A DNA stretch of 26,442 nucleotides, taken from Candidatus Tenderia sp. (GTDB lineage: Bacteria; Pseudomonadota; Gammaproteobacteria; Tenderiales; Tenderiaceae). The notes beneath the pieces were generated by a model. The model did no database searches, was not told the DNA's origin, and saw nothing but the letters and a program-made list of their open reading frames with translations. The first letter of the stretch is position 1, and every line of letters starts with the position of its first letter. Below are positions 6,755 through 22,548 of the stretch, piece by piece. A program made the position numbers and the translations under genes. The DNA is taken from the NCBI GenBank assembly GCA_031416075.1, contig JANOSY010000021.1, positions 1-26,442 of the forward strand. The letters run 5' to 3'.

Positions 6755-8413
6755 TTACTGTTCTAGCGATTTATATTTTTCGCGCAGGCGGTTACGAATG
6801 GCAATCGCCGCCAGATTAAGTACAACAATTACAATCACCAGCAGTAGGGCAGTGGCGTATACCAAAGGCCGTGCTGCTTCGATATTGGGGCTTTGGAAAC
6901 CGACATCGTAGATATGGAAACCCAGGTGCATAAATTTACGGTCCAGATGCACAAAGGGGAAGTTACCATCCAGCGGTAGTGAGGGTGCTAACTTGACCAC
7001 ACCGACCAGCATTAACGGTGCCACTTCACCGGCAGCGCGGGCGATGGCCAAAATCATGCCGGTCATGATGGCCGGGCTGGCCATGGGGATAATGGTGCGC
7101 CACAGGGTTTCTGCCTTGGTGGCCCCCAGGGCTAGACTGCCTTCGCGGATGGAGCGGGGGATGCGGGAGAGCCCCTCTTCGGTGGCCACGATCACCACGG
7201 GCATCGTTAGTAACGCAAGTGTGAGCGAGGCCCAGAGCAGTCCGGGGGTGCCAAATACTGGTGCGGGTGCCGATTCGGGGAAAAACAGGCTATCGATGGA
7301 GCCACCGAGGAAGTAGACAAAAAAGCCCAACCCAAATACGCCATAAACAATGGCGGGTACCCCGGCAAGATTGTTGACGGCGATGCGGATGGTGCGGGTG
7401 ATGAACCCCTGTTTGGCATATTCACGCAGATAGATGGCCGCAATCACACCAAAGGGTGTTGCCAGCATCGACATGATGATGACCATGATGACAGTTCCAA
7501 AAATGGCCGGGAAGATCCCCCCTTCGGTATTTGCTTCACGGGGATCCTCTGAGAGAAACTCCCACACTTTCTCAAAATAGAAGAGGGTCTTGGCAAACAG
7601 TGAGAGTTTGTTGGGCTGGTAGGCACGCACCACTTTAGAGAGTGGCAGTTCAACGGTCTGTCCGGTGGAGACTTTGACGGTGACAGTGGCGCGGCCAATC
7701 TCGCGGTAGAGTCCCTGCAGTCTGTTTTGTAGCAGTTCGTACTCTTGCTGGAGCCGCTCTGTTTCAAGTTGAATGTCGGCGAGGGCCTCAGGGGAGGCTC
7801 CGTTTTTAAGCTCCAGTGTGCGCTTTTCCAGACGCAACTGCTCCATGGCGTAGTTGATGGAGCCAATGTCGCTCTTTTCGATGTCACGAATGGTGCTGTG
7901 CAGGTCCAGGGTGGTTTTGATCTGCTTCTGTAGCGCCTCCCAACTGCCTGGGCCTTCGGCCACGGTGGCACCATCGATTTTGAGTTGTTGCAGGTCGCCA
8001 TGCAGGTTGCCCCACTCCAGACGTTCAAAAACGATGATTTCCTTTGGTGTGCTGATACCGCTGATCAAGGGTTTGATGATCCAGCGGAAATCACTGCCAC
8101 CAATATCACGGTTGCCTACTTTAATCAGGTAACGCTGGATACGGTCACTGCTGCTTTCAAGTGCAACGCCGCTGTCACGAATACGCTCTAACGACACCTC
8201 CTCTTTTTCGCGTAGTTCGCCCACCACCTGCACAATCTCGCCATTCTGATAGGGGTCCTGGTATTGATAGGCGTTGATATCGGAGGGCCAGAAGTGGACC
8301 ATGCCACGGGCGATGATCAGTCCCAACAGGCCGATCACCGCCAGCAGGCAGATGGAGACGGCTCCGGCGGTCAGCCAGATCCAGGGTTTACCGCTTTTTA
8401 TCCAGTTTTTCAT
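6755..8413 (-). CDS. pstA: Phosphate ABC transporter permease PstA (long form with periplasmic/coiled-coil insertion)
   Basis: [31 protein letters not shown] loop [20 protein letters not shown]. Its start overlaps the pstC stop. Confidence 0.93.
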
Positions 8414-19337: not shown

Positions 19338-19838
19338 TTAGGCGCGGCGTCTGTACAAGGGGAGTGGTTCGTCAGAGGATGTTTGATATTTGACGCTAAT
19401 CTCATCAAAGGCGTTAAGTGCATCTTCAATGGTCTGGCTGGCATCGATCTCAAAGGCGTCAAAACCGGCACGTTCCATATAAGCCAGCTGATCACGCAGC
19501 ACATTGCCCACCGCACGTAGCTCGCCAGTATAACCGTAGTGTTGGCGCAGGGCAGTGGCAATGGAGTAGCTGCGACCATCGCGGAAGCTGGGGAATTGCA
19601 GCGCGACGATGGCAAAGTGTGACAAATCGGGGCTGATTTCTGCCACGTCATGATCACTGTTAAGCCGCACACCGAGTCCACCTGAGTGTCGTAATAACCG
19701 TTCTTTGTCGCTCTGCCATAACGCAAAGGGGACGATGATGTCACCTGCGGGCAGCGTATCGGCCGTTACGCCGTCGGTCAGGTCCGGAATATGTTGCCAC
19801 CGGTCTTCAATGATCTGGCGATTCTTAATTATCTGCAT
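19338..19838 (-). CDS. DUF934 family protein (sulfite-reductase-associated)
   Basis: FPSFRDGRSYSIA..LR..YGYTGELRAVGNVLRDQL..MER.GFDAF. The start MQIIK overlaps the cysI end, the usual cysI-DUF934 pairing. Confidence 0.88.
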   Translation of the reverse strand: MQIIKNRQIIEDRWQHIPDLTDGVTADTLPAGDIIVPFALWQSDKERLLRHSGGLGVRLNSDHDVAEISPDLSHFAIVALQFPSFRDGRSYSIATALRQHYGYTGELRAVGNVLRDQLAYMERAGFDAFEIDASQTIEDALNAFDEISVKYQTSSDEPLPLYRRRA

Positions 19839-21549
19839 AGACACGCTCTTGAAAAGGGACAATTCCGATGCGCTGGAAGGTGTCGATAAACTGTTCGCCT
19901 TCGATACGTTGTTCAACATATACGTGGGCGATTTTTTCAACAGCATCCGCCACCTCATCTTTGGAGACGGCACGACCCAGGCGTTGACCCAGCTCAGCGG
20001 TGGTCTCTGCATAGCCCCCCAGCGTTAGCTGGTACCACTCTTCCCCCTTTTTATCGACACCCAGAATGCCGATATGACCGATGGCATGGTGGGCGCAACC
20101 GTTCATGCAGCCAGACATCTTCAGCCTGATTTCGCCAAGGTCGTAGAGGTAGTCAAGATCTTCAAAACGGCGCTGGATCATGTCGGCCACATCGATGGAG
20201 CTGGCGTTGGCCAGTTCGCAGAAGTCGAGTCCGGGGCAGCAGATCATGTCATTGATGGAGCCAATGGTGGGTGTTGCCAGCCCATCTTGATGCAGTGATT
20301 GCCAGAGTGGGTAGAGTTCACCCTGTTTAACATCGCTGAGTACCAGATTCTGTTCGTAGGTGCTGCGAATCAGCCCGGCGCTGTAACGATCGGCCAGCTC
20401 AGCCACCAGATCCATCTGTTTGTCAGTAATGTCGCCGGGCGCAATGCCGGGGGCTTTGAGTGAGACAAACACACCACGATACCCCTCTACCTTATGGTCA
20501 AAGGTGTTGTATTTGAGCCAGCGGGCAAAGTCATCGTTATTGTTGGCATAACCTTCATGACGTTTATCGCTGGCCGCATCGGCGTCATAGGGGAGTGGGG
20601 TGAAAAATGTTTTTACACGGTCAATTTCAGCCTGATCGAGGATAAGTTTATCCCGGTTATTGGTCCACTCGCGCTCGACCAGAACCCGGAATGTGTCCAT
20701 ACCCAGGCTGGCAACGAGTATTTTGATGCGGGCTTTGTACTTGTTGTCACGACGGCCCTTGAGGTTGTAGACACGTATTATCGCCTCCAAGTAGGAGAGC
20801 AGGTGCTGCTTCTCCAGGAAGGGGCGAATAGTCTGACCAATCATGGGGGTGCGTCCAAGGCCGCCACCAACACTGACTTGAAAACCAACTTCGCCGGTCT
20901 CATTTCTGACCAGTCTTAGGCCAATGTCGTGAACCAGAGTAGCGGCGCGATCGCGGCTTGCGCCGGTGATGGCAATTTTAAACTTGCGTGGCAGGTAGGC
21001 AAACTCCGGGTGCAGGGTGCTCCACTGACGGATGATTTCACAATAAGGCCGCGGGTCTTCCAGCTCATCGGCAGCAACACCGGCCAGTGGGTCAGTGGTG
21101 GTATTACGAATACAGTTGCCGCTGGTCTGGATGGCGTGCATCTGCACTGAGGCCAGATCGGCAAGAATATCAGGCACTGTTTCCAGCTTGGGCCAGTTGA
21201 ACTGGATATTCTGGCGGGTGGTGAAGTGACCGTAACCTTTGTCATATTGACGGGCAATATGCGCCAGCATCCGCATTTGGTCTGATGAAAAGAGGCCGTA
21301 AGGGATGGCGATACGTAACATGGGTGCGTGGCGCTGGATATAAAGGCCATTCATCAGGCGCAAGGCCATAAACTCATCAGCCCCCAGTTCGCCCGTCAGG
21401 TAACGTTTTGTTTGTCCGCGAAACTGGCTGACACGTTCGTCAACAATGCGTTGGTCGTATTGGTCATAGATGTACATGCCAGGACGCTGAACGCACGGGC
21501 GTGAGGGCTGGGGCTGCGCTGCTGGGGCTATGTTCTGGGTTTGACTCAT
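19825..21549 (-). CDS. cysI: Assimilatory sulfite reductase hemoprotein (Pseudomonas-type CysI, nitrite/sulfite reductase family)
   Basis: LRLMNGLYIQRHAPMLR, HFTTRQNIQ, TSGNCIRN, LPRKFKIA, and siroheme/Fe-S ligands CPGLDFC...SGCMNGC. Alternative start at 21477 (MYIYD). Confidence 0.9.
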   Translation of the reverse strand: MSQTQNIAPAAQPQPSRPCVQRPGMYIYDQYDQRIVDERVSQFRGQTKRYLTGELGADEFMALRLMNGLYIQRHAPMLRIAIPYGLFSSDQMRMLAHIARQYDKGYGHFTTRQNIQFNWPKLETVPDILADLASVQMHAIQTSGNCIRNTTTDPLAGVAADELEDPRPYCEIIRQWSTLHPEFAYLPRKFKIAITGASRDRAATLVHDIGLRLVRNETGEVGFQVSVGGGLGRTPMIGQTIRPFLEKQHLLSYLEAIIRVYNLKGRRDNKYKARIKILVASLGMDTFRVLVEREWTNNRDKLILDQAEIDRVKTFFTPLPYDADAASDKRHEGYANNNDDFARWLKYNTFDHKVEGYRGVFVSLKAPGIAPGDITDKQMDLVAELADRYSAGLIRSTYEQNLVLSDVKQGELYPLWQSLHQDGLATPTIGSINDMICCPGLDFCELANASSIDVADMIQRRFEDLDYLYDLGEIRLKMSGCMNGCAHHAIGHIGILGVDKKGEEWYQLTLGGYAETTAELGQRLGRAVSKDEVADAVEKIAHVYVEQRIEGEQFIDTFQRIGIVPFQERVYADN

Positions 21550-21713
21550 GCTGATCCGCTTGCCTTGTTTTTCGTACTCGGATGGTCGCCTGTAGCTTCA
21601 TGGTAGACGACCGCCAACGTTAAGATAGGGTATTTTTTATATAAGATAAATTAATCGTTTTATATAGTTTATATTAACTAATTATATAAAGACGAATGTT
21701 GATGCCGTGAAAA

Positions 21714-21789
21714 TGGTGCCCCGGGCGGGACTCTAACCTGCGACCTATCCCTTAGGAGGGGATCGCTCTATACACTGAGCTACCGGGGC
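21714..21789 (-). tRNA. tRNA-Arg(CCT), with non-canonical U19 and A56
   Basis: 76 nt: GCCCCGG TA GCTC AGTGTATA GAGC G ATCCC CTCCTAA GGGAT AGGTC GCAGG TTAGAGT CCCGC CCGGGGC A CCA. Full cloverleaf, anticodon CCT, A20 Arg identity element and encoded CCA. Confidence 0.9.
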
Positions 21790-21840
21790 GTACAGTTAAC
21801 TGCTGGGGCGACAGTATATCAACTTGAATCAGAAAGGAAA

Positions 21841-22548
21841 TCAGCTCTTACGTTTTTGTTGGGCGAGGCGTTGCAGCAACATGACACTGCGTTCAATTTG
21901 CCTCTCCTGAAGGCTGGTAACGCTGACAAATTGGCCACCGATGAAGGCTGCTTGAGCTTTTTCATCCTGGTTTTTGATCGCACGGACGATTATTTGACAG
22001 GCGAGTGCCTGCTTGCCATCGGGAGGTAGTGGGAATGAGCAGTAGAGTATTTGGTCCGTTTCCAGTGCTATGGGCAGCTCTTTGGAAAAGCGCACTCGAA
22101 TGCCACCGATTGATATGTCAGCAATATCGCCGGTTAAAATTAGGTTGCCAGGTGTGGTCAGGGTCGCAGGTAGTGATTGAAATGGGCTTAAGGGGATGCG
22201 GATACTTGCCCGTCTCTGGTGGTGGTTAAGTGATGCGGGGAGCGTAGCTCTATAATGGGTGAGACCATTTGTTTTGTAACAACCCTTGAAGTCGACGCTA
22301 AAGTCGATTGGAACACCTTCAATTTGAGTCGCAAGTGTGAGGGTGGATGTTGATTTATACAGCGCTTGATCGGGCGCAGGCCTGAATTCGTTGAACATTA
22401 GATGTTCTCCGTCGTCACTGGAAAAATCGATTATGGTAGTTGTGTATTCCTCTATATGCTCACCGATTGAGGCAGTGATTAATGTGCGCTGTTTCATGAG
22501 CTGAGTGAGGATTTTTTTGATTCGTATGGTATCGGTTAGCGTTTCCAT
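21841..22548 (-). CDS. ycgR: Flagellar brake protein, YcgR family (PilZN + PilZ c-di-GMP receptor)
   Basis: PilZ motifs QRRASIR (RxxxR) and DISIGG (DxSxxG). It lies downstream of flgN, as in Pseudomonas (flgZ). Confidence 0.82.
   Translation of the reverse strand: METLTDTIRIKKILTQLMKQRTLITASIGEHIEEYTTTIIDFSSDDGEHLMFNEFRPAPDQALYKSTSTLTLATQIEGVPIDFSVDFKGCYKTNGLTHYRATLPASLNHHQRRASIRIPLSPFQSLPATLTTPGNLILTGDIADISIGGIRVRFSKELPIALETDQILYCSFPLPPDGKQALACQIIVRAIKNQDEKAQAAFIGGQFVSVTSLQERQIERSVMLLQRLAQQKRKS

Follow-up and report, generated by a model that had tools for sequence, protein, structure and literature searches.

The window, the whole 26,442-nt stretch of DNA analysed here, encodes one tRNA, a tRNA-Arg(CCU) in which the elbow pair G19:C56 is replaced by U19:A56. 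The G19:C56 pair is treated as invariant. Judged from sequence, the feature is a lineage-wide, compensated elbow swap in a working-looking tRNA, and positions 19 and 56 are paired in every Arg(CCU) sequence that we aligned.

The tRNA-Arg(CCU) gene and its elbow

ARAGORN calls the gene, with anticodon CCT, as the sole tRNA in the window. Its features are as follows.

21714–21789, minus strand: tRNA-Arg(CCU) gene, 76 nt, CCA encoded (ARAGORN; Rfam RF00005)
21772, minus strand: U19 (T in DNA), where relatives have G19 (sequence; column 19 of alignment A1)
21734, minus strand: A56 in the T loop TTAGAGT, where relatives have C56; partner of U19 (sequence; A1 column 57)
21754–21756, minus strand: anticodon CCU, loop CUCCUAA, reads AGG (ARAGORN; loop invariant in 72 of 72 A1 sequences)
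21727–21739, minus strand: T-stem mismatch of A51 (21739) and C63 (21727) (cmscan)

The Rfam RF00005 model matches at 21717–21789 over its full length (1–71 of 71), scoring 63.1 bits against a gathering score of 29. The gene letters are GCCCCGG-TA-GCTC-AGTGTATA-GAGC-G-ATCCC-CTCCTAA-GGGAT-AGGTC-GCAGG-TTAGAGT-CCCGC-CCGGGGC-A-CCA, from which the D loop reads directly as AGTGTATA and the T loop as TTAGAGT. Position 19 was assigned through A1, an alignment of 72 distinct Arg(CCU) sequences deliberately enriched for non-C56 sequences, in which the D-loop T falls in the column of the second G of GG; its flanks, G18 (21773) and A20 (21771), are unchanged. The acceptor stem, the D stem and the anticodon stem show no defects, and the CCA end is encoded intact. 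The cloverleaf has stems of 7, 4, 5 and 5 base pairs with an A·C mismatch at 51:63, the one non-standard pair that cmscan marks. A sequence-only reading had described these same details, namely U19 at 21772, A56 at 21734, the A51–C63 mismatch, the intact stems and the CCA end, and the sequence, ARAGORN, Rfam and A1 bear it out on every one.

The anticodon CCU sits in a seven-base loop, CTCCTAA, with U33 and A37, as in the Arg(CCU) isoacceptor. From work in E. coli, the identity elements for ArgRS are reportedly A20, C35 and U36; all three are present, and A20 is invariant across the 72 sequences of A1. Of the canonical elbow, G18, U54, U55, G57 and A58 are retained, with U at 19 and A at 56. 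As read from these letters, the feature is a tRNA and a member of the Arg(CCU) isoacceptor by all testable features bar G19 and C56, and U19 and A56 can form a Watson–Crick pair as G19 and C56 do.

Stem columns of A1 covary, with 99.6% of cells paired over the 72 sequences. Position 51:63 is unpaired in only three of these, all from genus g1: it reads A·C in the source genome (G000) and G003, A·A in G001, G002 and G004, and A-U in other genera. All five genus-g1 species carry a mismatch there, with C or A at 63 (the window; L003, L004, L007), a pattern indicating that the mismatch persisted in the genus while base 63 changed. The window tRNA is predicted to fold into a cloverleaf-like structure at −31.1 kcal/mol, and a family member with A51-U63 at −34.9 kcal/mol. 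Position 51:63 belongs to what we take to be the region of the T stem that tunes EF-Tu binding; A51·C63 would further weaken the T arm in genus g1, and three distinct genus-g1 sequences with the mismatch fit a relaxed load on the tRNA.

An altered elbow and a weak T stem might also serve to avoid translation, in a non-ribosomal role like that of the staphylococcal cell-wall tRNA-Gly. The mismatch does sit in the part of the T stem presumed to tune EF-Tu. In the available part of one study, U19 occurs in four of five S. aureus tRNA-Gly isoacceptors (PMC5622331). We regard such a role as highly improbable here: the anticodon loop CUCCUAA never varies in A1, the T stem is fully paired in most family members, AGG codons are in use, and no aminoacyl-transferase gene was found among the ten neighbouring genes scanned.

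Conservation within the order and at the locus

The family, which is the whole order (17 genomes), was covered by a pattern search for the A56 form, and a comparison with related genomes, as the sequence-only reading had suggested, found U19:A56 in 14 of the 17, in five genera. BLAST of 40 relatives, with ARAGORN run afterwards, identified 14 family loci. Each carries the letters GTATA in its D loop and TTAGA in its T loop, and the window tRNA is 91–100% identical across them. The basal genome G005 (genus g2) has a canonical GGATA/TTCGA Arg(CCU) gene with G19:C56. Two assemblies, G011 and G014 (83% and 77% complete), gave no match to the Arg(CCU) pattern. Outside the family, the 15 Arg(CCU) genes of the outgroup (other families of the class) all have G19:C56.

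The surroundings of the gene are marked by three features.

21841–22548, minus strand: ycgR-like PilZ gene, upstream, syntenic marker (Pfam PilZN and PilZ)
19825–21549, minus strand: sulfite/nitrite reductase gene, downstream, syntenic marker (Pfam NIR_SIR)
21813–21821, minus strand: TGATATACT, extended −10-like word, 24 nt upstream of the tRNA (TATACT core kept in 13 of 14 family loci)

The genes flgN, flgM and flgA precede the ycgR-like gene, which is followed by the tRNA and then the reductase gene. By tblastn, the YcgR-like protein and FlgN adjoin the tRNA in 14 of 14 family loci each, and the reductase does so in 13 of 14; this arrangement is absent from all 16 outgroup loci. The canonical gene of G005 likewise lies directly after flgN and ycgR. 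Because G005 carries G19:C56 at the same ycgR-adjacent site and all 15 outgroup genes are G:C, the ancestral state is G:C. As reconstructed from these loci, the swap arose once from that ancestor, after genus g2 had branched off, and the swapped gene is vertically inherited at one locus. Compared with the window's, the YcgR-like protein of the nearest genome (L001) is 88.5% identical, and those of the other twelve family loci 31–52%. Since the tRNA remains 91–100% identical beside a protein that has diverged this far, we take the tRNA gene to be under purifying selection.

The word TGATATACT is possibly the tRNA's own promoter; a scan for consensus promoters and terminators found no sigma-70 site and reported no other site. 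Between the 3′ end of the tRNA and the reductase gene, an AT-rich stretch with TTATATA/GATATA repeats (21610–21705) is kept in about 12 of the 14 family loci and is probably a regulatory region of the reductase gene.

Two altered near-invariant positions and a T-stem mismatch could be the marks of a decaying pseudogene or of an assembly artefact. The source genome is 3.49 Mb in 95 contigs with 52.8% G+C, and a single Arg(CCU) is among its 40 ARAGORN calls; among the remaining 39, all 38 credible tRNAs keep the D-loop GG and C56. The other call, an 83-nt 'tRNA-Asn(att)' at G000:C74:33631-33713 that lacks both GG and a TTC loop, is likely false. BLAST of the window tRNA against its own genome returned a single match, with no second partial copy. 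Wherever contigs from four further public DNA runs in four studies reach 21734 or 21772, they show no alternative letter; the cover is by run contigs, often broken within the tRNA, rather than by raw reads, one X7 contig spanning both sites, X4 and X7 covering 21734, and X2 covering 21772. Both letters, U19 and A56, recur in 14 separately assembled genomes of the family. These genomes and the agreeing independent contigs rule out an artefact.

A pseudogene is ruled out in turn by the identity of the tRNA across the 14 genomes beside a neighbouring protein that falls to 31–52% beyond its closest relative, by 19:56 pairing in 72 of 72 A1 sequences, and by an Rfam score in the canonical range. 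The window tRNA scores 63.1 bits, three other swapped family members 58.7–68.2, and six canonical orthologues 61.0–71.7. The expectation that automated tools might score the gene low or call it a pseudogene was not borne out, as ARAGORN calls it and its score falls among those of the canonical orthologues. We consider decay or artefact extremely improbable. The earlier argument that two such changes are compensatory and point to selection over decay gains support from their fixation in five genera at one locus and from the unbroken pairing.

Swapped 19:56 pairs in other genomes and other tRNAs

To place the swap in a wider setting, we scanned one genome per species with a pattern of Arg(CCU)-like anticodon, variable and T arms carrying non-C56, position 19 lying outside the pattern. 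The scan returned at least 120 stretches, and among the matches listed 107 hold an intact Arg(CCU) spanning the match. In these 107, the 19:56 pair is C:G in 59, U:A in 38, A:U in 8 and G·U in 2, with none unpaired (105 Watson–Crick). The other listed stretches comprise six clipped at an end, about six 3′ halves or broken copies, and one archaeal tRNA-like stretch not called as a tRNA. In A1, with its deliberate enrichment, the same columns read UA in 36 sequences, GC in 14, CG in 12, AU in 8 and GU in 2, none of the 72 being unpaired; by this count the 19:56 covariation is as good as that of any helix pair. All three alternative pairs occur, which argues that pairing is kept rather than one particular base.

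By record title, carriers include Oscillospiraceae, Faecousia and other Clostridia; Blastocatellia, Pyrinomonadaceae and Chloracidobacterium; Cellvibrio, Hyphomonadaceae (Hirschia litorea), Marinobacterium and Oceanospirillum; Halieaceae and Arenicella MAGs; an Acholeplasmatales MAG; and Bacilli. For the class to which one Acidobacteriota carrier belongs, 121 genomes were searched and 56 match, with 30 C56, 23 G56 and 3 A56 by our own count from the list. U:A and C:G forms coexist in four clades, which fits a switch from one to the other by way of a U·G wobble. On viral contigs, 14 of 14 matches are intact, compensated Arg(CCU) genes (A:U in ten, U:A in three, C:G in one). In a sample of the gammaproteobacterial class, a swapped Arg(CCU) occurs in 4 of the 274 genomes that have the gene, three of the four in this family. 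It had been proposed that the case would weaken if U19:A56 proved common in this isoacceptor; swaps do recur in many lineages and in phages, but at 4 of 274 class genomes they are rare. As far as these genomes show, the 19:56 swap in Arg(CCU) is rare and recurrent rather than unique to this lineage.

In five genomes from five carrier lineages, Arg(CCU) is the sole match of a general class-I non-C56 tRNA pattern, and at the 14 phage loci with a swapped Arg(CCU), 149 of 150 other tRNAs keep C56. The phage arrays L288, L291, L292, L297 and L296 (22–29 genes) pair an A19:U56 or U19:A56 Arg(CCU) with nearly uniform C56 in the rest; in L288, L291, L292 and L297, several tRNAs have unusual T loops (ATCGTTA, for instance). 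Within the genomes surveyed, the swap is special to Arg(CCU).

Across genomes, any such preference is less evident. The general non-C56 pattern, run on 401 genomes sampled from the class, gave 13 matches, against about 20 for a reversed control pattern. Four were intact Arg(CCU) genes, in G000, G003 and G008 of the family and in G274 (A:U). The other nine comprised one intact Lys(UUU), four 3′-half fragments after unrelated DNA and four chance matches, judged by eye; the label of chance was given by eye to seven pattern matches in all (G168, G404, G051, G389, G891, G742 and G659). The intact tRNA-Lys(UUU) has A19:U56 and lies in a 0.8-Mb genome (L156, G318). A 401-genome sample of the phylum around the Oscillospiraceae carrier held no Arg(CCU) match beyond the centre genome; it yielded an intact 77-nt tRNA-Gly(UCC) with C19:G56 in two genomes (L160, L161; G828, G635), one fMet-like gene whose G·A is not compensated, and otherwise fragments or chance matches.

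As a control, a pattern for Lys(UUU) and Asn(GUU) with non-C56 was run on metagenome and viral contigs. The metagenome contigs gave at least 118 stretches, with 30 intact tRNAs among the matches listed, and the viral contigs 25 stretches, 21 of them intact. By eye, these 51 listed intact controls have A:U in 27, G·U in 16, C:G in 2, U:A in 1 and no pair in 5. Some 45 of the at least 118 metagenome stretches (L171, L173, L175, L178 and about 40 further loci) belong to a single repeat family that resembles tRNA-Asn, has an A-rich tail and lacks an acceptor stem; it may be a tRNA-derived repeat. Since Lys, Asn and Gly tRNAs show them too, compensated 19:56 swaps are a general, if rare, property of tRNAs, and a swap exclusive to Arg(CCU) is ruled out by the compensated swaps in Lys(UUU), Gly(UCC) and many Lys/Asn tRNAs. 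Among the matches listed, inverted pairs (U:A or C:G) make up 97 of 107 cellular Arg(CCU) genes and 3 of 51 Lys/Asn tRNAs, from collections that differ and with related rows; at face value the inverted share of Arg(CCU) stands out.

Truncated copies, running from the anticodon loop to CCA with unrelated AT-rich DNA before them and a changed 56, were seen at L153, L154, L155 and L157 (G174, G313, G075, G079) and at L036, L043 and L110; they look like attachment-site remnants of integrated elements. In L090 (a Marinicella litoralis record), an Arg(CCU) copy at about 220–330 on the minus strand is normal up to the T-loop GGTT and then diverges, and an intact canonical copy lies at 7478–7553 within that 8-kb stretch, the arrangement that insertion of an element into the T loop would leave. 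By such a route, an integrase that targets the T loop could install a 3′ half with a changed position 56, compensation at 19 following later. The 3′-half fragments after unrelated DNA in several genomes, and the L090 copy interrupted within the T loop and accompanied by an intact one, are consistent with it. For the window tRNA we find this import improbable. A Pfam scan of ten neighbours found no integrase or island beside it, its genome holds no second partial copy, and it sits among flagellar and sulfur-assimilation genes in conserved synteny; the fragments, having been picked by the pattern itself, are silent on rates.

Elbow partners and the origin of the swap

Several partners touch the elbow. 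In the available text of one study, the G19:C56 platform is the surface on which the L1 stalk, RNase P and T-box stem I stack as they dock (PMC3664808). TruB contacts C56 sequence-specifically, according to an excerpt of another (PMC3753934), and TruA/PUS3 bind the elbow at G19:C56 in the accessible part of a third (PMC12710931). TruB was found in the source genome, and given its contact with C56, formation of Ψ55 on the window tRNA may be affected. No TrmA or TrmFO equivalog above cut-off was found in the source genome; the only matches were weak, to a 446-aa RlmD-like ORF and a 645-aa MnmG-like ORF (C40:4263-4979; C89:31875-33107), and the organism's tRNAs may lack m5U54. Neither enzyme is above cut-off in G000, G005 or G418; TrmA is present in G419, and TrmFO in G415 and G416. 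All of these except G005, which is canonical, carry the swapped Arg(CCU). A link to missing U54 methylation is therefore ruled out, as the swap occurs both with and without TrmA/TrmFO.

We hold it probable, if far from certain, that the swap reflects compensatory evolution in a low-load, partly redundant, functional AGG decoder, followed by renewed purifying selection. In this view the outermost elbow pair, G19:C56, gave way to an isosteric U19:A56 in an ancestor shared by five genera of one gammaproteobacterial order. A change at only one of the two positions would have been tolerated until the partner base changed, and selection would then have held the pair again. Two features could have let such a change persist. 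In a crude set of 1400 ORFs, each 300 codons or longer, no Arg codon is used less often than AGG, which accounts for 4.1% of Arg codons (2.4 per 1000); and ARAGORN calls a tRNA-Arg(UCU) gene in the source genome, whose product presumably also reads AGG there. The new pair would preserve the L shape and the flat platform offered to RNase P, the L1 stalk and similar partners, with two hydrogen bonds in place of three and with purine and pyrimidine trading sides. We infer that the tRNA is expressed, charged and used in decoding, and the neutral route likewise; the kept −10-like word and the conservation of the gene are indirect signs of its use, and among recorded public sequencing runs no RNA run is listed for the stretch.

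Two observations sit uneasily with a neutral route. The 97 inverted pairs among the 107 listed Arg(CCU) genes imply two transversions through a non-pairing intermediate. Passage through G·U to A:U would be expected instead, as in the Lys/Asn controls, where 43 of the 51 listed are A:U or G·U. At the 14 phage loci, moreover, Arg(CCU) is swapped and 149 of 150 other tRNAs have C56, which looks isoacceptor-specific, although the rows are not independent and stem from different collections.

Both could instead speak for adaptive discrimination, in which a partner that reads the elbow or C56 treats Arg(CCU) differently, leading to tuning of AGG decoding or escape from attack. Candidate partners are TruB, RNase P, the L1 stalk, ArgRS near A20, or a phage or defence nuclease directed at tRNA. 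The swap is limited to Arg(CCU) within genomes: it affects one of 39 credible tRNAs in the source genome, Arg(CCU) is the only general-pattern non-C56 match in five of five genomes of five lineages, and the phage tRNAs show the same restriction. Inverted pairs dominate in Arg(CCU) and not in the Lys/Asn controls, among the matches listed. The specific reading of C56 by TruB, as excerpted (PMC3753934), together with the presence of TruB in the source genome, also favours it. We nevertheless think adaptive discrimination unlikely. The occurrence of three alternative pairs favours no single new identity, and samples not centred on a carrier gave one Arg(CCU) (G274), one Lys(UUU) and one Gly(UCC) lineage, with no excess of Arg(CCU). 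Known RNA partners, in the part of the source available (PMC3664808), stack on the pair as a platform. There is no link with the presence or absence of TrmA/TrmFO, and no candidate partner was identified. In a sharper form, the Arg(CCU) elbow would have been inverted repeatedly, to pyrimidine-19:purine-56, in unrelated bacteria and in phage tRNA arrays, owing to a factor that reads the outer elbow face or C56 beside A20, as escape or tuning and not drift; a factor singling out this rare-codon tRNA would be, for example, a tRNA-directed nuclease or a processing or modification enzyme. We give this version little credence.

A search of full-text literature, covering few subscription journals and no supplements, found no U19:A56, A19:U56 or C19:G56 in bacterial tRNA-Arg. 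One T-loop review treats G19 and C56 as conserved, with exceptions not mentioned in its available part (PMC7912444). The accessible portion of another paper names 'C19-G56' in the elbow of an A-site tRNA, apparently a slip for G19-C56 (PMC10944890). The window thus holds a natural bacterial tRNA that, with more than 100 others, carries an alternative pair at a 'universal' site, mostly Watson–Crick and with none unpaired among the listed Arg(CCU) genes. Together they form a natural test set for which partners read the shape of the pair and which its bases, and by record title the carriers include the cultured Cellvibrio sp. OA-2007, Hirschia litorea and Marinobacterium sp. MBR-109. For annotation, A56, G56 or U56 alone is no sign of a pseudogene. 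If the bias to Arg(CCU) and to inverted pairs is true, it would imply an isoacceptor-specific constraint; if not, the swaps would be ordinary compensatory evolution.

Relative to known tRNAs, the window tRNA resembles canonical Arg(CCU), exemplified by the 15 outgroup genes and by E. coli argW, which we take as the canonical bacterial form. It shares with them the loop CUCCUAA, A20, G18, U54, U55, G57 and A58, the five-base variable loop AGGUC and the encoded CCA, at 82–88% identity to relatives in the class; it differs in having U19:A56 for G19:C56 and, in genus g1, A51·C63. In mitochondrial tRNAs, D/T-loop contacts are eroded or altered and depart from G19:C56, as part of a general erosion of many tRNAs; here, by contrast, the change affects a single tRNA among about 39 and pairing is retained. 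Some S. aureus tRNA-Gly serve cell-wall synthesis. In S. aureus tRNA-Gly isoacceptors, for a different amino acid, G19 is replaced by U as in the window tRNA, according to the available part of the source (PMC5622331). Closest in kind are the swapped Arg(CCU) genes of other lineages and of 14 phage contigs, which share the isoacceptor, a paired non-G:C 19:56 and, in all, G57. Those of other lineages have other tRNA bodies in other taxa, many with C:G or A:U and not U:A, and these different bodies and taxa make the origins of the swap appear separate.
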